Shown: piece by piece, positions 1-43,394 of the stretch
How positions within the stretch are numbered: position 1 is the first letter of the stretch
Layout of the letters: each line of letters opens with the position of its first letter
The notes under the pieces: generated by a model
What the model saw: the letters and a program-made list of their open reading frames with translations, nothing else
Told to the model about the DNA's origin: nothing
Database searches by the model: none
Translations under genes and position numbers: made by a program
Virus record (IMG/VR): IMGVR_UViG_2519103024_000002
Length of the DNA: 43,394 nt
Reading direction: 5' to 3' (one strand)
Origin: a virus
Lineage: Duplodnaviria; Heunggongvirae; Uroviricota; Caudoviricetes

Positions 1-91
1 CACAACATCCGAGGACAGCAACACCCGATACTTTTTCCTGGCTTCCAGCAACGGGGTTTCTTCCTCCGTTGCATATACAGCTCACCTTTTT

Positions 92-385
92 TCACCCACG
101 ATTAACCAACAGCCAGACCAGCAGACACGCCACCACCGGCACAGCAAAATCCATCAGGCTTGCCACATCCCAAGCTCGCGGATCAAAACCGCCCCACCAC
201 GGCATATTCATTCGCTTGCCATGCCCGAACATTTCAATCCAGCGATATTCTGCCTGGGTATGTTCACGCGCAATGAAGAACGTACAACCGGCTATCGCTC
301 CGTAAGCCCAGTTTCCGGTAAAAAGACCAACCAGTATCTGCGCAGCCACAGCACAAAGCGCATGAAGTAAGGGGCTTATATCCAT
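92..385 (-). CDS. hypothetical small integral membrane protein (about three hydrophobic segments)
   Basis: ORF of 97 aa with hydrophobic stretches (AVAAQILVGLF, VPVVACLLVWLLV); last gene at the tail-fibre end; no family recognised. Confidence 0.4.
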   Translation of the reverse strand: MDISPLLHALCAVAAQILVGLFTGNWAYGAIAGCTFFIAREHTQAEYRWIEMFGHGKRMNMPWWGGFDPRAWDVASLMDFAVPVVACLLVWLLVNRG

Positions 386-397
386 TATTTCCTCCTT

Positions 398-676
398 TCA
401 GCTCCATTCCCGAAGCGGTGTTTCCAGCTCCACGACATAATCAGAGAATACAGAAACATCAAACAAGTCATCAAGAATGCGAATGTTGACAAAATAACCG
501 TCATTCCGGACACAGACAGGTTCTCCCTCTTCTGTTACCCCTGTTTCTGTGTAGGTGAAACCAATTTCATCGACTAACAGTTTATTCTGGAGGTCTTCAT
601 CCTCCTCCCAGTCAAGAGATGACAGGAAGGCCTTAAACTGCAGTTTGTCATGAAACTTCAAAGTTAAATCTTTCAT
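398..676 (-). CDS. hypothetical acidic protein immediately downstream of the side tail fibre gene (possible fibre chaperone; not lambda Tfa-like)
   Basis: ORF of 92 aa whose start overlaps the stf stop (673-676); occupies the slot where lambda has tfa but the sequence does not resemble Tfa. Confidence 0.4.
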   Translation of the reverse strand: MKDLTLKFHDKLQFKAFLSSLDWEEDEDLQNKLLVDEIGFTYTETGVTEEGEPVCVRNDGYFVNIRILDDLFDVSVFSDYVVELETPLREWS

Positions 677-2739
677 ACGACCTCTTTTAATTGCCTGTCA
701 TTTAATTCTTTATGCCATATGCGGAAATTGCGAATATGGCCAAACAGATGTCGTTCTCCAGTATTCGTCTGCCCTCCAAATCGGATATTTTTATCAGCGG
801 TCACACCATTATATTCACAATAAACTTCATTAACCGCTTTACCATTTGTCACCACATGAAAGTGACCATCAGCTTTTGCAATACATCCAAATGTGGTTTT
901 CTCTGCAAATACATCTGTCGCTGCGCTATTAACATACAAGCCTGAAGGGTTTGACAGACTCATATATAACTTACCACTACCTCTGTTGATTGCTGCAATT
1001 GCTGATTGCCCGGTATTGGCTGCTGCTATATCCCACACGCGGGGTGCGGCGTTTGGTGCAATATCCCAGTTTTTATGAATCTCAAGTAAAAAAGTAAATG
1101 GTAACTTATAAAGATTATTTCTGGTGGGGATACTAACCAAATCACTGGCTCTTGTCGTTGCGCTGCCTCCTGAAATAATAAATGATGATACACACGGCCC
1201 ATTCTCTACTTGTGGGGTGGCAAGATAAATATAGTCACCAGATACTGTTGCCCCACCCCGCTCAGGAGAATACTGTATCTGAGAGCCTATTTTTAACTCA
1301 CCATCAATTGCCTGAATCGTTGCCTCTGCAAAAATCCAGCCTGTGGTCTTATCCTTCCTGACTCGTGCCGTAATTCTGCCGGCAGCCCCACCTGTCATAT
1401 TAATTTCAAGCGTTTGCGTATCAATGTACGCATCGCCAAGAAAAGTTGTTGCACTACCATCATACTTATCAAACCGTATACGTAACCTTACCTGTCGTTC
1501 TGTTTTAAAACGGCATGAGGTTGTCACGTACTTGTTATCGCCTGAGACATCAACTGACTTTGTTGCAGCAATTGATGCCATATTAATAGCCGAAGTTTGC
1601 CCAACCAGAGAATCGTTGCAGACAAACTTTCCATAAGTAAAACCAAAACTATCTGTCCCGGTTTCGGGCACATCCATGTTTGATGACTTCCCCCAGCTGG
1701 CTGGACTTTCCGAATTGAGCATGTAGTTCGTTCTTTGTCCCTCAATAAGCAGGCCATCACACTCAAATCGCGGCTCATTAATTTCCGCCGTTTTCAGTTC
1801 GCCAGATTTGTTGATATATGTTGCCGTTGATGCGCGACTGAAATTAACCTGTTTATCACTGGCGACCTGAACCACATCGTCACCAATAGCTATTTTTTTA
1901 TAGCCCGGAGAAAAACCCGCAATCATATCCAGTGAATCGTTAAACGGTATCCACACATCAGGCAGCGGCGGCACTATATTCGCATAGGGCTCTGCAGTCA
2001 CTTCCGCTGCGACTTCTGCGCGGTCTGCCGCCTTTTCAGCCCGTGTCGCTGCCGACAGAGCCTCATCCTTTTTCTGCCCGGCCTTTGTTGCGTCTGCTGC
2101 GGCCTCCCGCGCTTTTGTGGTGGCGACTCCGGCATTTTCAGCGGCTGACTCTGCATTACGGCGGGAAGCCTCTTCACTGTCTGCGGAGGCTTCTTCTGAC
2201 GCACGGGCATTTGTCTCTGAACGTTCTGCCGCTGTTGCTGCGTTTTGTGCGGCTGTTTTTGAAGAAGCTGCCGCTTTCGCGCTGTTACCTGCATTCGTCT
2301 CTGATGTTTTCGCCGCATTCCTGGACGATGCCGCTGCTGTTTCTGATTTCTTTGCTGCCGCTGCGCTCTGAGAGGCGGCTTCAGCGTTGCGTGCCACCTC
2401 TTCCACCATCTTTTCAAAACGATACAGTGCCTCCGGACGAACATCATCTTCTGTTGCAGCGCCCAGAAAATCATTCAATGTCCCCGGCTTAGAATCCTCA
2501 TACACGGTGATGGCCCCGGCATGTGAAGGCGGAAAACCTTCAACCAGCAGGATAACGCTGTACTGGCCATACTCGACATCCATGCTGTAACGTCCGGCTT
2601 CATCCGGATTTTCTGAGGCCACCGTGTTCACCACAACCGTGGTGCTGTTACGTTTTGCTTTGAGCTGAATGGTGCAGTTCTGTATCGGTTTTCCTGCACC
2701 GTCTTTCAGCACGCCTGAAATCTGTACTGCCATATTCAC
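673..2739 (-). CDS. stf: side tail fibre protein; lambda Stf-like N-terminus, Ala/Ser-rich shaft, divergent distal domain
   Basis: N-terminus MAVQISGVLKDGAGKPIQNCTIQLKAKRNSTTVVVNTV...GRYSMDVEYGQYSVIL matches lambda Stf as remembered; follows J; C-terminal ~350 aa not lambda-like. Confidence 0.85.
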   Translation of the reverse strand: MNMAVQISGVLKDGAGKPIQNCTIQLKAKRNSTTVVVNTVASENPDEAGRYSMDVEYGQYSVILLVEGFPPSHAGAITVYEDSKPGTLNDFLGAATEDDVRPEALYRFEKMVEEVARNAEAASQSAAAAKKSETAAASSRNAAKTSETNAGNSAKAAASSKTAAQNAATAAERSETNARASEEASADSEEASRRNAESAAENAGVATTKAREAAADATKAGQKKDEALSAATRAEKAADRAEVAAEVTAEPYANIVPPLPDVWIPFNDSLDMIAGFSPGYKKIAIGDDVVQVASDKQVNFSRASTATYINKSGELKTAEINEPRFECDGLLIEGQRTNYMLNSESPASWGKSSNMDVPETGTDSFGFTYGKFVCNDSLVGQTSAINMASIAATKSVDVSGDNKYVTTSCRFKTERQVRLRIRFDKYDGSATTFLGDAYIDTQTLEINMTGGAAGRITARVRKDKTTGWIFAEATIQAIDGELKIGSQIQYSPERGGATVSGDYIYLATPQVENGPCVSSFIISGGSATTRASDLVSIPTRNNLYKLPFTFLLEIHKNWDIAPNAAPRVWDIAAANTGQSAIAAINRGSGKLYMSLSNPSGLYVNSAATDVFAEKTTFGCIAKADGHFHVVTNGKAVNEVYCEYNGVTADKNIRFGGQTNTGERHLFGHIRNFRIWHKELNDRQLKEVV

Positions 2740-2791
2740 TCCACAAATAAAAAAGGCGCCATTTCTGGCGCCCGTATCTGGGTTATAAAAT

Positions 2792-5700
2792 TCAACTGAT
2801 ACTGATACCGGCTGTAGATTTCTTCATCACAACAACAAGAAGGTCGCTGATACTGGTCGTTGGCGTCCAGTTATTAGCACCATATGAAGAAACATTGAAA
2901 GTCAGGGTGACATGGCCGTGTCCGGCAGGCATATCAATGACTGATGAAAATACCCTGCTGACATCCGTCGCGGGTTGCTGAAAGATTTCCTGTCCGTTCT
3001 TCAGTACCTGCAGCTTACAGGTTGAATACCAGTATGACTGTTGGTTGTTGCTGTTGAAGTTTTCATGCTTACCCCCACGAAACAGAACGGGGGGGACTAC
3101 TATCTGACGGTCAAAAGCCTGGTCATCGTACACAGTGACCGTTATTGTACCGCTGGCATAACTGCCATTTCTCGGAAAGGCTTTTCCCACCGTTTTGACA
3201 ATATCACCTTCAATCTGGTTAGCTGACAGTTTTCCCAGAATCCGACAGTTCTGATTAATCGTGACGTTGTTGAGCGTCCCGGAGTTCGCGTTCACGTTAC
3301 CGCTGATATCCGCATTTTTCGCAGAAAGTCGACCATCAGGTGTCAGTGAAAACGTTGGGGGATTGCCACCGCTGGTAATGGTGGGAGCCGTCAGATATTT
3401 CAGGAACACTTCGTTCATGAATATCTGATCGCCCTGCCCAACAAACATCGGCTTTGTGTTGCCATTCGCAGGATTAATCATCGCAATCCTGTCCGCCGCC
3501 AGCAGCACCTGACTCTGCATACCGTCAGGAGTATTCTCAACACCGGCACCAATACCCGCGATATAAAGGCGTCCGTCCTGCATCTGCTGCAGCTTCACAG
3601 CCCACATGCTGTTCAGGTTATTATTTGTATCAACCTGAACCTTCTGTATCTGCTGGATCGCTGCACTCTGGTCTTCCAGTTTCTTATTGACGGTCTGCGT
3701 GATTTCATTGCTGACACCCGTAATGGACGTCCTGATTTCAGCCAGGTCAGGCGCAAGCTGACCGTTATCAATCTGCGTCCACAACTCCTGAGCCAGATGG
3801 GTTTTCCCTATCTCTCCTTTGAAAAAATTCAGATAGCCGGATGCATCATCACTCGGCTGGCCAACAGCCTCCACAAATGCCGATTTGCCAACGGTGTTCA
3901 CACTGCGGATGTAAAAATAATAATCATGGCCCGGTTTGATATTGATACTGGCGGCTATCCAGTACAGCGCCGTGCCAAGATAGCGTGCTGTGGTTTCAAC
4001 CTGCCTGATATCCGCAATCCGCTTTTCCGAGAACCAGAACTCAAACTGTACCGTCGGATCATAAACCGCAAGATGCGGCGTGGCGGTTATCTGAAAATAC
4101 CCCGGTGTCAGCTCAATCTGCGACGGCGCTGCCGGTGCGGCAATCCGGAACGATACCGATGCCGGATCGCCCTGCTGCCCCCACGCATTTACCGCCCGGA
4201 CTGTCAGCCTGTAGTTCCCCAGCGCCAGTTGCCTGAAGCGGTATGTGGTTTCCGTCGTCCGGGCCGTGCTGACCAGCCGCTCACTGCCGTCATCCGCTGC
4301 CACGGTCAGGCGAAGCATAAAGCTCACCCCCTTCACCACCTTCGGCGTGTCCCAGCGCGCCAGCACCTGATATTCCCCGCTGTCTGCGGTGACTTCGGCA
4401 GTCAGGTGCTGCACCGCTGGCGGCGTGACACCATTCACCGTGCCGCTCTGGTCGCCGTCAAAGTGCGCCCCGTTATCCACGATGGCCTCTTTTTCCGGTA
4501 CATGCTGCACGGCAGTGATGGCATACGTGCCGTCATCGTTCTCACGGATACTCACACAGCGGAACAGGCGCTGGCGCAACGTTGGCAACTTCAGCCCCCA
4601 CACGCTGTATTCTGCAACGCCGTCAGGAACACGGCTCACTTTTACCTTCACGCCGTCGGTGACGGACTGGACCTCCACGCTGACCGGATTCCCCTGTCCG
4701 TCAGCCAGGCTTATCAGCGTGGTGCCGGAGGATGGCAGCGTGATTTCACGGTCGAGCGTCAGTGTCCGCGTCTGGTTGTTCGCCGCCAGCACGCGCCCGC
4801 CGATGCTGATCCCCGCATAGTCATCATCACAGATTTCAATGACATCGCCCGGTACATGGCGAAGCCCTTCTGCACCCACGCTGAAGTCCACGGTCTGCGT
4901 TTCCAGCAGCTCCGTTTAANCAGCCACAGCCCGGNGCGGTGTCGCCTCGCCCCCGGCTCGGTACANNNNNNNNNNNNNNNNNNNNNNNNNNNNNNNNNNN
5001 NNNNNNNNNNNNNNNNNNNNNNNNNNNNNNNNNNNNNNNNNNNNNNNNNNNNNNNNNNNNNNNNNNNNNNNNNNNNNNNNNNNNNNNNNNNNNNNNNNNN
5101 NNNNNNNNNNNNNNNNNNNNNNNNNNNNNNNNNNNNNNNNNNNNNNNNNNNNNNNNNNNNNNNNNNNNNNNNNNNNNNNNNNNNNNNNNNNNNNNNNNNN
5201 NNNNNNNNNNNNNNNNNNNNNNNNNNNNNNNNNNNNNNNNNNNNNNNNNNNNNNNNNNNNNNNNNNNNNNNNNNNNNNNNNNNNNNNNNNNNNNNNNNNN
5301 NNNNNNNNNNNNNNNNNNNNNNNNNNNNNNNNNNNNNNNNNNNNNNNNNNNNNNNNNNNNNNNNNNNNNNNNNNNNNNNNNNNNNNNNNNNNNNNNNNNN
5401 NNNNNNNNNNNNNNNNNNNNNNNNNNNNNNNNNNNNNNNNNNNNNNNNNNNNNNNNNNNNNNNNNNNNNNNNNNNNNNNNNNNNNNNNNNNNNNNNNNNN
5501 NNNNNNNNNNNNNNNNNNNNNNNNNNNNNNNNNNNNNNNNNNNNNNNNNNNNNNNNNNNNNNNNNNNNNNNNNNNNNNNNNNNNNNNNNNNNNNNNNNNN
5601 NNNNNNNNNNNNNNNNNNNNNNNNNNNNNNNNNNNNNNNNNNNNNNNNNNNNNNNNNNNNNNNNNNNNNNNNNNNNNNNNNNNNNNNNNNNNNNNNNNNN

Positions 5701-7224
5701 NNNNNNNNNNNNNNNNNNNNNNNNNNNNNNNNNNNNNNNNNNNNNNNNNNNNNNNNNNNNNNNNNNNNNNNNNNNNNNNNNNNNNNNNNNNNNNNNNNNN
5801 NNNNNNNNNNNNNNNNNNNNNNNNNNNNNNNNNNNNNNNNNNNNNNNNNNNNNNAGCAGCTCCGTTTTAATCAGCCACAGCCCGGCGCGGTGTGCCTGCC
5901 CCCGGCTGGTACAGCCAAAGGCATCCATCTTCGTGACGTTACGACCGTAACGGGCAATGGCCTGCGTGTCCTCCACAAGCTCTGTCGCCGTCTCCCAGCC
6001 GTTATCCGGGTCAATCCAGTTCACCTCAACGGCATTATGGCGGTCTTTCAGGGCGCTGAAGCTGTAGCGGAACGGCGCGCCATCATCCGGCATCACCACA
6101 TTACTGCGGTTATAGGTCCACACCTTATCCGACGGTCGGTCCTGCACGAATGTCAGCGTCTGCCCGTTCCATACCGGCATACAGCGCATCGCCGAGCAAA
6201 AATCACTGAGCACATCCCACGCCTTGCGCTGTGTGGTCAGGTACGCATTACAGGTGATGCGCGGCTCCGTGCCGCCAAAGCCGTCCGGCACTGACTGGTC
6301 GCAATTCTGGCCGATGACATACAGCGCCCATTTATCCACATCTGCCGCACCAAGACGTTTCCCCATGCCGTAGCGCGGATGGGTCAGCATATCCCACAGA
6401 CACCAGGCCATGTTGTTGCTGTATGCTGGCTTAAACGTTCCGTCCCAGATACCGCTGTATTGCCGCGTCTGCGGGTTATAGTTCGACGGCACCTGCAGAA
6501 TGCGCCCGCGAAGATGATAATTACGGCTCACCTGCTGGCTGCCGAACTGCTCCGAGTCCACCTGTACGCCGACCAGTGCCGTGTTCGGGTAGCACTGTTT
6601 CACATCGATGATTTCGGTGTATGACGACCAGAGCGTTTTGTTCTGCAACTGGTCTGTGGTGCTGTCCGGCGTCATCCTGCGCATCCGGATATTAAACGGG
6701 CGCGGCGGCAGGTTATCCACCACCACCGAGGCCAGATACTGCGACGTGGTTTTGCCCTTAATGGTGATGTCTTTTTCCGTCACCCAGCCACCGTTACGTT
6801 GAATCTGAACCAGCAGGCGGACTTCCGATGGATTCCTGTCCCCCTTTGAGGTGGTTTCCACCAGTGCCTGCACGCCGAAAGTAAAACGCAGACGGTCAAT
6901 GTTTGCCGACGTGATGGTCCGGGTGATCGGCGTGTCATATTTCACTTCTGTACCGAGCACCGTCTCGGAGCCGGAGGATTCAAATCCCTCCGGCGGAGTC
7001 TGCTCCTGCTCACCGGCCCGGAACACCACCGTGACGCCGAATATATTGGTATTCCCCTCACTGTCCAGCACCGGCGTACTGTTCAGCAGCACGCTTTTTA
7101 ATCCATCCACCGGACCTTCAACCGGCCCTTCGCTGATGGCGTCTATCACGCTCAGCATCTGGGATGATTTCAGGTTGTCCTTCGCTTCGCGCGGGGTATG
7201 CCCCTTACTGCTGCCTTTACCCAT
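2792..7224 (-). CDS. J: host specificity / central tail fibre protein J, interrupted by an artefactual N-run (4966-5854) with duplicated flanks
   Basis: N-terminus [22 protein letters not shown]... and the join ...[42 protein letters not shown] read continuously when 4905-4965 is overlapped with 5855-5913; matches lambda gpJ. Confidence 0.9.
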
Positions 7225-7284: not shown

Positions 7285-7956
7285 TCAGCGACCAATCACC
7301 ACAACCTGACCACCATCCCCTTCGTCTGCCGTGCTGATCTCCTGAGAAACCACGCGTGACCCCACGCGCATTTCACCGTACAGAACCGGCAGAACATTGC
7401 CCTGGGCAACCATGTTATCCAGTGAGGAGAAATAGGTGTTCTGTTTGCCGTTATCCGTTGTCTGTGTACGGGGAGTTCTGGCTTTCGGTGCCAGCATCTG
7501 CGCCACACCACCGAGCACCATACTGGCACCGAGAGAAAACAGGATGCCGGTCATACCACCGGCCCCAATGGCTGCCCCCCATGCTGCAAGGGTGGCTCCG
7601 GCGGTAAAGAATGATCCGGCAATGGCGGCAGCCCCCAGGACAATCTGGAATACGCCACCTGACTTGGCCCCGGCGACTCTGGGAACAATATGAATCACAG
7701 CGCCATCAGGCAGAGTCTCATGTAACTGCGCCGTTAACCCGGACGTGCTGACGTCCCGCCCGGCAATCCGTACCTGATACCAGCCGTCGCTCAGTTTCTG
7801 ACGAAACACCGGGAGCTGTGTGGCCAGTGCGCGGATGGCTTCAGCCCCCGTTTTCACACGAAGGTCGATGCGGCGGCCAAATCGTTGTAAATCCCCGTAA
7901 AGGCAGATGCGCGCCATGCCCGGTGACGCCAGAGGGAGTGTGTGCGTCGCTGCCAT
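7285..7956 (-). CDS. I: tail tip assembly protein I
   Basis: 223 aa, MAATHTLPLASPGMARICLYGDLQRFGRRIDLRV... essentially lambda gpI; overlaps the 3' end of K as in lambda. Confidence 0.9.
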   Translation of the reverse strand: MAATHTLPLASPGMARICLYGDLQRFGRRIDLRVKTGAEAIRALATQLPVFRQKLSDGWYQVRIAGRDVSTSGLTAQLHETLPDGAVIHIVPRVAGAKSGGVFQIVLGAAAIAGSFFTAGATLAAWGAAIGAGGMTGILFSLGASMVLGGVAQMLAPKARTPRTQTTDNGKQNTYFSSLDNMVAQGNVLPVLYGEMRVGSRVVSQEISTADEGDGGQVVVIGR

Positions 7957-8602: not shown

Positions 8603-8857
8603 TTACTGCGAAAGTTTGTTAATGGAAAGGAAGCCGCCAAAGTTGCCGACGTTATTGCGAAACTTACAGCCGCTCAGGCATTTGCTGCATTTATCCTTCG
8701 TGATATCGGAATCGGCTGATCATATTCATCCGCGACCGCCGGACCGTGATAACCGCACTCATCACCGCGATAGGTCCAGGTGCAGGTATTAGCCAGCATG
8801 ATGCGCCCCGGAAAAACGGCGACCATCCGTTCCGTCCGGTGTGGACAGTACAAAGGA
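8603..8857 (-). CDS. L: tail tip protein L, 3' portion; 5' end in N-run; reading frame broken (frameshift or sequencing error)
   Basis: Frame ending at 8674 gives ...AVFPGRIMLANTCTWTYRGDECGYHGPAVADEYDQP; a different frame from about 8712 to a TAA at 8603-8605 gives ITKDKCSKCLSGCKFRNNVGNFGGFLSINKLSQ, ending 5 bp before the K start; a third frame at 8820-8857 gives SFVLSTP. Confidence 0.6.
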
Positions 8858-9391
8858 NNNNNNNNNNNNNNNNNNNNNNNNNNNNNNNNNNNNNNNNNNN
8901 NNNNNNNNNNNNNNNNNNNNNNNNNNNNNNNNNNNNNNNNNNNNNNNNNNNNNNNNNNNNNNNNNNNNNNNNNNNNNNNNNNNNNNNNNNNNNNNNNNNN
9001 NNNNNNNNNNNNNNNNNNNNNNNNNNNNNNNNNNNNNNNNNNNNNNNNNNNNNNNNNNNNNNNNNNNNNNNNNNNNNNNNNNNNNNNNNNNNNNNNNNNN
9101 NNNNNNNNNNNNNNNNNNNNNNNNNNNNNNNNNNNNNNNNNNNNNNNNNNNNNNNNNNNNNNNNNNNNNNNNNNNNNNNNNNNNNNNNNNNNNNNNNNNN
9201 NNNNNNNNNNNNNNNNNNNNNNNNNNNNNNNNNNNNNNNNNNNNNNNNNNNNNNNNNNNNNNNNNNNNNNNNNNNNNNNNNNNNNNNNNNNNNNNNNNNN
9301 NNNNNNNNNNNNNNNNNNNNNNNNNNNNNNNNNNNNNNNNNNNNNNNNNNNNNNNNNNNNNNNNNNNNNNNNNNNNNNNNNNNNNNNNNNN

Positions 9392-16686: not shown

Positions 16687-17034
16687 TTACGGCAGCGCCG
16701 CGTGACTCAGGGCACTGCCAGCAAAGGCGTTGGCCTTTTTGTGTTCATCCACACTTTCAGGCCAGTGGATTGCCTCCGTCGCAAAGGTTCCCGACTTGTA
16801 ATACGTCAGCGCCGTCTCTGTGCCTTCAAGCGGCAGTACCAGTATGCCAACCGCACTACCGGCTTTCTGTCCGTCCCAGACCACCAGTTTCCCGGTGGCT
16901 TCATCCAGCATCAGGGGCGTCAGTGCCGGTGTTGGCGAGGAAATCCCGCTGCTGCCTGTGGCGGTATGAGCCGGATCATTACCGGCAAAAATACGTACTT
17001 CCGCACGCTGTTCAGTGATGGTTTTCGTCACCAT
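16687..17034 (-). CDS. D: head decoration protein D
   Basis: 115 aa, ...NDPAHTATGSSG...TPLMLDEATGKLVVWDG...GILVLPLEG...YKSGTF... lambda gpD-like. Confidence 0.9.
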   Translation of the reverse strand: MVTKTITEQRAEVRIFAGNDPAHTATGSSGISSPTPALTPLMLDEATGKLVVWDGQKAGSAVGILVLPLEGTETALTYYKSGTFATEAIHWPESVDEHKKANAFAGSALSHAALP

Positions 17035-17070: not shown

Positions 17071-17904
17071 TCATGGCATGGCCATGAGCATTTTCACGTC
17101 CGCATCACCGTCTGCTGACGTCTGTGCCACGCCACCCCGCACCGCTGCCGGTGAATGGTTCGCCATGAAATGTTCAAACATGGCGGTTGTGGATGCAGAG
17201 ACCGGTTCTGCCTTACCTGATCCCGCAGCCAGCACAGCCCGGGCGCTCTCCACTGTCATTCCCGGGCAGGCAGCCAGCTGTTCAGCCTGCGCCTCAGCCC
17301 CTTTTGCCTCATCCAGTGCCATGATCTGATCACGGAGTGATGGTCCGGCATCCGCCTGCGGTGAAGCAGCCAGGATCGGGCGGGCTTTTTCCACCGTCAT
17401 CTCCGGCATCGCCGCCAGCGTTGCCGCCAGTTGTTCACGACCGTTCGCTTCTTCACACACCATAATGCGATCGGCTTCACTCTGCGTGGATGCCACCGGC
17501 TGCTGCGGTGCCGCCGCGGCCAGAATCGCCCGGGCCTGTTCAACGCTCATGCCCTGTTGTCCTGCCAGCATCGTGGCAAGCTGTTCACGTCCTTTCGCTT
17601 CCTGGCATGTCAGGATCCCCATCACTCGCTGGTTCTCCTGCGCGGCGGCTTCCGTTGCAGTTAATTGCGGCATAGTGCCTCCTCTGACATTACTGTTCAG
17701 CGCCGTGGCCATCACACTGATGGCATCCGACGCATTGATTAATTCATCCGCCAGCCCGGCCTCAATGCCGGACTGACCTTCAAAAACGGCAGCCTCTGTT
17801 CCCGTGACGGCATCAACAGACAGACCGGTATACATCGCCACTTTTTCGGCAAACATCCGGCGCGCCGCATCAATCCGCTGCTGCATGTCCTGGCGAACCT
17901 GCCG
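17071..17904 (-). CDS. C: capsid assembly protease C / scaffold Nu3 (C-terminal ~278 aa; 5' part in N-run)
   Basis: ...VAMYTGLSVDAVTGTEAAVFEGQSGIEAGLADELINASDAISVMATA... then repeated Ala-rich scaffold segments ending ...DADVKMLMAMP; position between B and D. Confidence 0.85.
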   Translation of the reverse strand, partial: RQVRQDMQQRIDAARRMFAEKVAMYTGLSVDAVTGTEAAVFEGQSGIEAGLADELINASDAISVMATALNSNVRGGTMPQLTATEAAAQENQRVMGILTCQEAKGREQLATMLAGQQGMSVEQARAILAAAAPQQPVASTQSEADRIMVCEEANGREQLAATLAAMPEMTVEKARPILAASPQADAGPSLRDQIMALDEAKGAEAQAEQLAACPGMTVESARAVLAAGSGKAEPVSASTTAMFEHFMANHSPAAVRGGVAQTSADGDADVKMLMAMP

Positions 17905-18754
17905 NNNNNNNNNNNNNNNNNNNNNNNNNNNNNNNNNNNNNNNNNNNNNNNNNNNNNNNNNNNNNNNNNNNNNNNNNNNNNNNNNNNNNNNNNNNNNNNN
18001 NNNNNNNNNNNNNNNNNNNNNNNNNNNNNNNNNNNNNNNNNNNNNNNNNNNNNNNNNNNNNNNNNNNNNNNNNNNNNNNNNNNNNNNNNNNNNNNNNNNN
18101 NNNNNNNNNNNNNNNNNNNNNNNNNNNNNNNNNNNNNNNNNNNNNNNNNNNNNNNNNNNNNNNNNNNNNNNNNNNNNNNNNNNNNNNNNNNNNNNNNNNN
18201 NNNNNNNNNNNNNNNNNNNNNNNNNNNNNNNNNNNNNNNNNNNNNNNNNNNNNNNNNNNNNNNNNNNNNNNNNNNNNNNNNNNNNNNNNNNNNNNNNNNN
18301 NNNNNNNNNNNNNNNNNNNNNNNNNNNNNNNNNNNNNNNNNNNNNNNNNNNNNNNNNNNNNNNNNNNNNNNNNNNNNNNNNNNNNNNNNNNNNNNNNNNN
18401 NNNNNNNNNNNNNNNNNNNNNNNNNNNNNNNNNNNNNNNNNNNNNNNNNNNNNNNNNNNNNNNNNNNNNNNNNNNNNNNNNNNNNNNNNNNNNNNNNNNN
18501 NNNNNNNNNNNNNNNNNNNNNNNNNNNNNNNNNNNNNNNNNNNNNNNNNNNNNNNNNNNNNNNNNNNNNNNNNNNNNNNNNNNNNNNNNNNNNNNNNNNN
18601 NNNNNNNNNNNNNNNNNNNNNNNNNNNNNNNNNNNNNNNNNNNNNNNNNNNNNNNNNNNNNNNNNNNNNNNNNNNNNNNNNNNNNNNNNNNNNNNNNNNN
18701 NNNNNNNNNNNNNNNNNNNNNNNNNNNNNNNNNNNNNNNNNNNNNNNNNNNNNN

Positions 18755-20336: not shown

Positions 20337-20699
20337 AACCTCACTNNNNNNNNNNNNNNNNNNNNNNNNNNNNNNNNNNNNNNNNNNNNNNNNNNNNNNN
20401 NNNNNNNNNNNNNNNNNNNNNNNNNNNNNNNNNNNNNNNNNNNNNNNNNNNNNNNNNNNNNNNNNNNNNNNNNNNNNNNNNNNNNNNNNNNNNNNNNNNN
20501 NNNNNNNNNNNNNNNNNNNNNNNNNNNNNNNNNNNNNNNNNNNNNNNNNNNNNNNNNNNNNNNNNNNNNNNNNNNNNNNNNNNNNNNNNNNNNNNNNNNN
20601 NNNNNNNNNNNNNNNNNNNNNNNNNNNNNNNNNNNNNNNNNNNNNNNNNNNNNNNNNNNNNNNNNNNNNNNNNNNNNNNNNNNNNNNNNNNNNNNNNNN

Positions 20700-21175
20700 G
20701 ACACCAGAACCCCACACCGGNGGAAAAACGCTTCAGGGTCGAGCGTATTATTCGCGGTGTTTTCTTCCGACCATGGAGCCAGCTCCAGCAATGCAGGAAC
20801 ATCCCTTATCGTTGGCTCAACATGAGATTTCATAAAATCTTCAGCAGCTGAGTCCGTGGGCTGAAAAAGAAGGCTGTTGCGTGATTTATGCTCAATAAAA
20901 TAAGCCTCCACTCCCAGCAACATCTTTGTATAACCAACACGGGCAGATTTAATCAGGTTAACCGTGCGAATCAGATCGTTGCCCATACAGTTCATGATGC
21001 CAACCTGAAACGGCAGTGTTTCCCATCGCCCCGGGGTATAAGACGACTCTTTAGGAAGGTAATAATGTTTATTGGCCCACTGAACTGTCGTCAGTGGAAC
21101 AGGAATAATGAGAGATAAAAGCCCTGTAGCTATCGCACCGGCTGCATTAGCTGCCTTCTGCGCGTCTGAAATCAT
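20700..21175 (-). CDS. A: terminase large subunit A, N-terminal ~150 aa only; rest (and gene W) missing in the N-run; frame break near the contig edge
   Basis: ...[78 protein letters not shown]...[18 protein letters not shown] matches lambda gpA; after APW the match continues in another frame (..KRFS.GVGFWC); n at 20721. Confidence 0.85.
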
Positions 21176-23281: not shown

Positions 23282-23286
23282 GTAAT
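23282..23286. repeat. IS2 target-site duplication (left copy, GTAAT)
   Basis: GTAAT immediately outside the IS2 left end; identical pentamer at 24981-24985. Confidence 0.8.
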
Positions 23287-23377
23287 TAGACTGGCCCCCT
23301 GAATCTCCAGACAACCAATATCACTTATTTAAGTGATAGTCTTAATACTAGTTTTTAGACTAGTCATTGGAGAGCAG

Positions 23378-23717
23378 ATGATTGATGTCTTAGGACCGGA
23401 GAAACGCAGACGGCGTACCACACAGGAAAAGATCGCAATTGTTCAGCAGAGCTTTGAACCAGGGATGACGGTCTCCCTCGTTGCCCGGCAACACGGTGTG
23501 GCAGCCAGCCAGTTATTTCTCTGGCGTAAGCAATACCAGGAAGGAAGTCTTACTGCTGTCGCCGCCGGAGAACAGGTTGTTCCTGCCTCTGAACTTGCTG
23601 CCGCCATGAAGCAGATTAAAGAACTCCAGCGCCTGCTCGGCAAGAAAACGATGGAAAATGAACTCCTCAAAGAAGCCGTTGAATATGGACGGGCAAAAAA
23701 GTGGATAGCGACGACGC
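23378..23717 (+). CDS. insC: IS2 transposase OrfA (InsC), 3' end in N-run
   Basis: [56 protein letters not shown]... matches IS2 InsC as remembered. Confidence 0.9.
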
Positions 23718-24619
23718 NNNNNNNNNNNNNNNNNNNNNNNNNNNNNNNNNNNNNNNNNNNNNNNNNNNNNNNNNNNNNNNNNNNNNNNNNNNNNNNNNNN
23801 NNNNNNNNNNNNNNNNNNNNNNNNNNNNNNNNNNNNNNNNNNNNNNNNNNNNNNNNNNNNNNNNNNNNNNNNNNNNNNNNNNNNNNNNNNNNNNNNNNNN
23901 NNNNNNNNNNNNNNNNNNNNNNNNNNNNNNNNNNNNNNNNNNNNNNNNNNNNNNNNNNNNNNNNNNNNNNNNNNNNNNNNNNNNNNNNNNNNNNNNNNNN
24001 NNNNNNNNNNNNNNNNNNNNNNNNNNNNNNNNNNNNNNNNNNNNNNNNNNNNNNNNNNNNNNNNNNNNNNNNNNNNNNNNNNNNNNNNNNNNNNNNNNNN
24101 NNNNNNNNNNNNNNNNNNNNNNNNNNNNNNNNNNNNNNNNNNNNNNNNNNNNNNNNNNNNNNNNNNNNNNNNNNNNNNNNNNNNNNNNNNNNNNNNNNNN
24201 NNNNNNNNNNNNNNNNNNNNNNNNNNNNNNNNNNNNNNNNNNNNNNNNNNNNNNNNNNNNNNNNNNNNNNNNNNNNNNNNNNNNNNNNNNNNNNNNNNNN
24301 NNNNNNNNNNNNNNNNNNNNNNNNNNNNNNNNNNNNNNNNNNNNNNNNNNNNNNNNNNNNNNNNNNNNNNNNNNNNNNNNNNNNNNNNNNNNNNNNNNNN
24401 NNNNNNNNNNNNNNNNNNNNNNNNNNNNNNNNNNNNNNNNNNNNNNNNNNNNNNNNNNNNNNNNNNNNNNNNNNNNNNNNNNNNNNNNNNNNNNNNNNNN
24501 NNNNNNNNNNNNNNNNNNNNNNNNNNNNNNNNNNNNNNNNNNNNNNNNNNNNNNNNNNNNNNNNNNNNNNNNNNNNNNNNNNNNNNNNNNNNNNNNNNNN
24601 NNNNNNNNNNNNNNNNNNN

Positions 24620-24969
24620 ACGAGCTTCCGGCGTCTCCAGTAGAGTGGCTGACGGATAATGGTTCATGCTACCGGGCTAATGAAACACGGCAGTTTGCCC
24701 GGATGTTGGGGCTTGAACCGAAGAGCACGGCGGTGCGGAGTCCGGAGAGTAACGGCATAGCAGAGAGCTTCGTGAAAACGATAAAGCGTGACTACATCAG
24801 TGTCATGCCCAAACCAGACGGGTTAACGGCAGCAAAGAACCTTGCAGAGGCGTTCGAGCATTATAACGAATGGCATCCGCATAGTGCACTGGGTTATCGC
24901 TCGCCACGGGAATATCTGCGGCAGCAAGCCAGTAATGGGTTAAGTGATAACAGGTGTCTGGAAATATAG
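24620..24969 (+). CDS. insD: IS2 transposase OrfB (InsD), C-terminal fragment after N-run
   Basis: ...[59 protein letters not shown]...[12 protein letters not shown]... (DDE transposase C-terminus). Confidence 0.85.
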
Positions 24970-24980
24970 GGGCAAATCCA

Positions 24981-24985
24981 GTAAT
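24981..24985. repeat. IS2 target-site duplication (right copy, GTAAT)
   Basis: GTAAT immediately outside the IS2 right end; matches 23282-23286. Confidence 0.8.
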
Positions 24986-33175: not shown

Positions 33176-33451
33176 TCAGAACGCTCGGTTGCCGCCGGGC
33201 GTTTTTTTATTGGTGAGTCCATCAAGCGCATACTTAAAAGCCCTGCTAATCGGACTGATGTCTGATGCCATTCCGAAAGCACACAAGACCGAAGCAATAA
33301 ATCTCCAGTCCGTTCTGCTTATCTTCGATTCATGACAGCCAATCATCTTTGCCAGACCGCGCTGGGTAATAGCTGACAGATTGATAAGTAAATCTGTTTC
33401 TGCGCGATCAACGTCACGCTGTGATAGTTTGCTGTAACTTGTTCTTTCCAT
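33176..33451 (-). CDS. cII: CII-like transcriptional activator (not lambda-type sequence)
   Basis: 91 aa; between cro/nutR and O; ...QRGLAKMIGCHESKISRTDWRF... HTH-like and C-terminal ...LTNKKTPGG resembling the CII tail. Confidence 0.7.
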   Translation of the reverse strand: MERTSYSKLSQRDVDRAETDLLINLSAITQRGLAKMIGCHESKISRTDWRFIASVLCAFGMASDISPISRAFKYALDGLTNKKTPGGNRAF

Positions 33452-42262: not shown

Positions 42263-43394
42263 ACCCCGATCTCACAAAATCTCTATACCCAATTTATATT
42301 GCAAATTAGATAAGCGAACCGGAAAGGTATATTGGCAATACAAACATCCACTATCCGGTCGTTTTCATAGCTTAGGAACTGATGAGAATGAAGCAAAACA
42401 AGTTGCTACTGAAGCAAATACCATTATTGCTGAACAACGTACCAGACAAATATTAAGCGTCAATGAGCGTCTGGAAAGAATGAAAGGCAGGCGCTCAGAC
42501 ATTACGGTGACAGAATGGCTTGATAAATATATTTCTATCCAAGAGGACAGGCTGCAACATAATGAACTAAGACCCAACTCCTATCGGCAAAAAGGCAAAC
42601 CCATTCGTCTTTTCCGTGAGCATTGTGGAATGCAACACCTCAAGGATATTACCGCACTTGATATTGCCGAAATAATTGATGCTGTAAAGGCTGAAGGTCA
42701 TAACAGGATGGCGCAAGTCGTGAGAATGGTGTTGATCGACGTCTTCAAAGAAGCACAACACGCAGGACATGTTCCGCCAGGATTTAACCCAGCGCAGGCA
42801 ACAAAACAACCACGAAATCGAGTAAACCGCCAAAGATTGTCACTGCCCGAATGGCAGGCAATATTTGACAGCGTAAGCAGACGGCAGCCCTATTTAAAAT
42901 GCGGCATGCTACTTGCTCTTGTTACTGGACAACGTTTAGGCGATATCTGCAATTTGAAATTCTCTGATATATGGGACGACATGTTGCACATTACTCAGGA
43001 AAAAACCGGTTCAAAACTTGCTATTCCGCTTAACCTGAAATGCGATGCTCTGAATATTACCCTTCGTGAAGTTATATCTCAGTGCAGGGATGCTGTTGTT
43101 AGTAAATATCTGGTCCATTACCGTCACACTACCTCTCAAGCAAACAGAGGAGACCAGGTTTCTGCGAATACTCTGACAACGGCTTTTAAAAAGGCCCGGG
43201 AAAAATGTGGCATAAAATGGGAGCAAGGAACTGCGCCCACATTTCATGAGCAGCGATCTCTGTCAGAACGGTTATATCGGGAACAGGGTCTGGATACGCA
43301 AAAGTTGTTAGGCCATAAATCCAGAAAAATGACCGACCGATACAATGATGATCGTGGTAAAGACTGGATTATCGTAGATATCAAAACAGCATAG
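42252..43394 (+). CDS. int: tyrosine integrase (lambda Int family)
   Basis: 380 aa; N-terminus MAARPRSHKISIPNLYCK... (arm-binding domain like lambda Int), catalytic region ...LALVTGQRLGDICNLKFSDIWDD...HEQRSLSERLY...LLGHKSRKMTDRY (R..H..R..Y pattern); stop codon is the last 3 nt of the window. Confidence 0.9.
   Translation: MAARPRSHKISIPNLYCKLDKRTGKVYWQYKHPLSGRFHSLGTDENEAKQVATEANTIIAEQRTRQILSVNERLERMKGRRSDITVTEWLDKYISIQEDRLQHNELRPNSYRQKGKPIRLFREHCGMQHLKDITALDIAEIIDAVKAEGHNRMAQVVRMVLIDVFKEAQHAGHVPPGFNPAQATKQPRNRVNRQRLSLPEWQAIFDSVSRRQPYLKCGMLLALVTGQRLGDICNLKFSDIWDDMLHITQEKTGSKLAIPLNLKCDALNITLREVISQCRDAVVSKYLVHYRHTTSQANRGDQVSANTLTTAFKKAREKCGIKWEQGTAPTFHEQRSLSERLYREQGLDTQKLLGHKSRKMTDRYNDDRGKDWIIVDIKTA

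Follow-up and report, generated by a model that had tools for sequence, protein, structure and literature searches.

As deposited, gene J of this prophage looks interrupted by about 0.9 kb of unknown sequence and carries a frameshifted fragment. Is a piece of the gene missing from the record, does the sequenced strain carry extra DNA inside J, or is the interruption merely a product of the way in which two contigs were set side by side? If left uncorrected, J could prompt calls of a pseudogene, of a defective prophage or of a longer or variant host-range protein. We consider, with a probability of about 95%, that the 889-N stretch in J is an assembly artefact: judging from sequence comparison, the two contigs would overlap by 59 bp and no sequence would be missing between them. 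This is a matter of data quality only, and there is nothing biologically new in it.

The window, by which we mean the whole stretch of 43,394 nucleotides that was analysed, represents, as a scaffolded draft and in reverse orientation, a lambdoid prophage of the phage 21 / ev017 type (Jouyvirus). Its collinearity with ev017 begins just after the side tail fibre region and runs through J, the tail and head genes, cos, the lysis genes, Q and the immunity region to int. The closest finished sequence that we found is a prophage in the chromosome of E. coli ATCC 11775, between sitD and icd, to which the window is 99.8-100% identical, contig by contig. The prophage is of the phage 21 type and is integrated at icd. 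At its two ends, position 1 of the window lies exactly one base past the end of sitD, and position 43394 is the exact end of the integrase gene beside icd; the prophage's sitABCD iron/manganese transporter cargo and its far attachment site are a short way beyond these limits.

The coordinates of J were carried over by alignment from the PGAP annotation of ATCC 11775, in which J occupies positions 5171-8653 of L003. On our reading, the locus is laid out as follows.

2792-7224, minus strand: gene J as laid out in the window, 4433 nt, which would be the true 3483-nt gene plus 889 N plus a redundant 61-nt copy.
2792-4904, minus strand: C-terminal part of J, unique to the left contig.
4905-4965: 3' tail of the left contig, of low quality; it repeats 5855-5913 redundantly, lacks one T (after 4914), has N at 4920 and 4935, and gains a C at 4943, 4948 and 4959.
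4966-5854: scaffold gap filler, exactly 889 N, which would stand for no sequence (true gap size, -59).
5855-5913: accurate 5' end of the right contig, which gives the 59-bp overlap in its true form and matches phage 21, ev017 and ATCC 11775 at every base.
5855-7224, minus strand: N-terminal part of J, on the right contig, with the start codon at 7224.

The earlier note on this DNA had claimed that the sequence before the N-run is repeated after it, differing only by indels and Ns, and had proposed aligning the two flanks as a check. When we aligned locally the 300 nt on each side of the N-run, positions 4905-4965 (61 nt) paired with 5855-5913 (59 nt) in 55 identical columns, with two N and four single-base indels as the only discrepancies, and the overlap reached the contig edges exactly, with the left contig matched up to its final base and the right contig from its first. 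The score of this alignment (90) is far above anything obtained with shuffled flanks (mean 22.6, SD 3.4, maximum 39 in 1000 shuffles) or with random pairs of 300-nt segments from the window (maximum 37, n=985). The repeat is therefore as it had been described, and the flanks do overlap end to start; the right-hand string that had been quoted holds the repeat itself, but it runs on to 5916, 3 nt beyond the end that had been given for it. The identical test on the flanks of the other four N-runs of the window gave scores of 20-37 only, so that 4966-5854 is the sole gap with overlapping flanks.

What, then, stands between these flanks in related prophages? The last base of the left flank falls at 17086 in ev017, at 17004 in phage 21 and at 7342 in ATCC 11775 (L003), and the first base of the right flank at 17144, 17062 and 7284 respectively: in each case a 59-bp overlap, with nothing between. 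The flanks likewise map to coordinates overlapping by 59 bp in PhiR57_1 and PhiR63_2, and the 59-mer of 5855-5913 has a single occurrence in each reference. The coordinate overlap in ev017, phage 21 and ATCC 11775 supports the claim, made before us from the letters of the window, that the Ns would represent no missing sequence. All 25 complete E. coli genomes among the matches listed, CFT073, Nissle 1917 and S88 included, contain the joined junction (1200 nt) unbroken at 99.9% identity, and in 189 records the best match to it reaches 99% identity or more. The case against extra sequence in the sequenced strain is thus strong but comparative, as it is drawn from relatives, and the sequenced strain departs from the best reference, ATCC 11775, in that it has an IS2 insertion not present there.

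The two copies of the overlap are of very different quality. In a four-way alignment the right copy matches the references fully and the left copy holds all six discrepancies (one deletion, three inserted C and two N), every one of them 6-51 nt from the contig end; the left copy had been called the low-quality one, and rightly so. The same distinction decides how the gene has to be read. As written in the window, J consists of two ORFs on the minus strand, 2792..4891 and 4759..7224. Joining positions 1-4904 to 5855 and onward restores a J ORF of 1160 aa, equal in length to J of phage 21 and of ev017, from which its product differs by 2 aa and 1 aa respectively. The continuous J frame that had been foreseen for such a join is therefore there, with the peptide quoted for it at J residues 447-470. 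If the left copy is used in the join instead, the net gain of 2 nt breaks the frame.

Once joined, the gene is unremarkable. The product resembles members of the lambda gpJ family (phage 21 CPT_21_21, ev017 VUF53345.1 and ATCC 11775 WP_000515327.1) over its full length, with 99.9% identity to annotated proteins; in the references the gene bears the name of central tail fibre / host specificity protein J, and the gene order is common to the window, phage 21, ev017 and ATCC 11775: tail genes I, K, L and M upstream of J and the side tail fibre downstream. J is an intact, ordinary member of the lambda gpJ family, and its apparent interruption is an artefact that reflects no biological difference. 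Two look-ups returned nothing: the error-bearing 28-mer GGTGTCGCCTCGCCCCCGGCTCGGTACA had no match in the viral contigs or genome contigs searched, and for the 821-aa ORF that reads through the Ns no entry was found.

How could such a layout have come about? We propose that the scaffolder ordered and oriented the two contigs correctly and put between them a gap whose length, 889 N, was mis-estimated. The last ~50 nt of the left contig would be a read tail full of errors (2 N plus 4 single-base indels over 61 nt, or ~10% discrepancy), and it is likely because of this tail that the contigs were left unmerged: a short overlap with ~10% discrepancy would plausibly fall below the assembler's joining criteria. 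Correcting the record would then consist in deleting 4905-5854 (950 nt, namely the 61-nt duplicate and the 889 N), which would leave the intact 3483-nt J. Gaps placed between overlapping contig ends, so-called negative gaps, are a documented artefact of scaffolding, and gap-closing tools deal with them explicitly (PMC4091766; PMC5368935). The present case resembles them in that an N-run lies between contig ends of the same sequence, and dropping the N-run with one of the copies restores what would be the true sequence. It differs in that the N-run is long (889) rather than a minimal placeholder, and so misleadingly implies that nearly 0.9 kb of the gene is missing.

The alternative that survives best, although we regard it as very improbable, is a real in-frame tandem duplication of ~948 bp (316 codons) in the middle of J, with contig 1 ending in the first copy and contig 2 starting in the second. 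If this were true, the prophage would encode a central tail fibre protein of ~1476 aa, which had been assembled only as two overlapping contigs and a gap. Two reference-collinear contigs with overlapping ends formally fit this layout, and 889 + 59 makes 948, a multiple of 3, so that the duplication would be in frame. As in an intragenic tandem duplication, a direct repeat surrounds unknown sequence and the stated length keeps the frame; here, however, one copy is corrupted (2 N, 4 indels) and the other perfect, and any junction would sit hidden in the Ns. An in-frame length has a 1-in-3 chance of arising by coincidence. Identical tandem units would normally be expected to collapse into one contig, without a break and without a low-quality tail. 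Moreover, this segment of J is present as a single contiguous copy in all the close references and in all the complete genomes listed.

Two features of the record as a whole also bear on the duplication. First, the copies differ by N and single-base indels, not by substitutions, and errors of this kind are found at other contig ends. Between the window and the finished ATCC 11775 prophage we counted 20 differences over 39 kb, 16 of which lie less than 200 nt from an N-run, although only 4% of the sequence is that close (binomial P ~3e-19). Positions 23710/23714 hold further contig-end errors, and at 17900 a deletion has removed 2 nt. Taken by position, the single-base indels, an N and this deletion lie at most 150 nt from N-runs, at 8711-8836, 17900-17904, 18764, 20721-20769 and 23710-23714.

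Second, the N-run lengths are wrong wherever they can be checked. The other four N-runs, at 8858-9391, 17905-18754, 20346-20699 and 23718-24619, compare with what is truly missing as follows, the first three being measured against ATCC 11775.

8858-9391: 534 N, for 470 bp truly missing.
17905-18754: 850 N, for about 670 bp truly missing.
20346-20699: 354 N, for 1631 bp truly missing, within the terminase large subunit gene.
23718-24619: 902 N, for 539 bp truly missing, in the middle of a 1331-bp IS2-type element.

These lengths are off by -1277 to +363 nt. With N-run lengths so unreliable in this record, the in-frame arithmetic of 889 + 59 carries no weight in favour of a duplication. The idea that the Ns are masks over real sequence of equal length can be rejected, since not one of the gaps has the length that the collinear finished reference would give it. 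We also considered, and rejected, the possibility that the other four N-runs are false gaps in their turn: their flanks are without overlap, and the references show 470-1631 bp missing. They are real gaps with mis-estimated lengths, and at 20346-20699 there may be a real deletion.

A second alternative, to which we give hardly any credence, is that a mobile element or other foreign DNA lies within the N-run and that the 59-bp repeat is its target-site duplication. Direct repeats around unknown sequence do resemble the signature of an insertion, and a real one is present across another N-run of this same prophage.

23287-24980, plus strand: IS2-type (IS3 family) insertion sequence, with a 5-bp target duplication, GTAAT, at 23282-23286 and 24981-24985.

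This real insertion shows what J lacks. Although the N-run 23718-24619 falls inside the IS2-type element (a complete copy of which, in strain SF-088, is 1331 bp long), element ends can be seen on both sides of the Ns, beside the 5-bp duplication. At 4966-5854 there are no element ends; J, collinear with the references, reaches the Ns from both sides. In addition, a repeat of 59 bp is far outside the target duplications of 2-14 bp that are typical of insertion sequences, and one of its copies holds N and frameshifting indels. None of ATCC 11775, ev017 and phage 21 has the IS2-type insertion, whose neighbours are a TonB-like gene on one side and, on the other, the iss/bor lipoprotein gene; iss is on the same strand, and the element lies ~170 bp upstream of it.

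A last alternative, which seems to us no likelier than an insertion, is that reads from a paralogous J, belonging to another lambdoid prophage in the same genome, supplied the consensus for the tail of the left contig, the break being a repeat-induced mis-assembly. A paralogous J is likely to be present in the strain, since E. coli genomes contain the J segment in a median of 2 copies, and in as many as 14. However, three diverged J alleles (HannyBb, cdtI and 640R1) show no variation at either N site or at any of the four indel sites, and wherever alleles do vary, the left copy has the base of ev017/ATCC 11775. We thus reject mixing with a paralogous J allele: the discrepancies are errors of the base-calling type and not allelic substitutions. 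Even if the tail did come from a paralogue, the conclusion that no sequence is missing from J would stand.

The reading of 4966-5854 as filler between overlapping contigs carries a lesson for the whole record. Its N-run lengths should not be trusted, and the last 50-200 nt of the contigs beside N-runs carry indel errors that produce spurious frameshifts. A few differences from ATCC 11775 lie elsewhere. At 33196-33202 the window has 7 T where ATCC 11775 has 6, just after a GC-rich stem-like sequence near the boundary between cII and the replication gene; this is the only difference in the 18.4 kb of that contig, and the extra T may be either a true variant or an error of sequencing through a homopolymer. 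At 17138 and 17140, distant from contig ends and 2 nt apart in the capsid protease/scaffold gene, two C-for-T substitutions are probably real strain differences.
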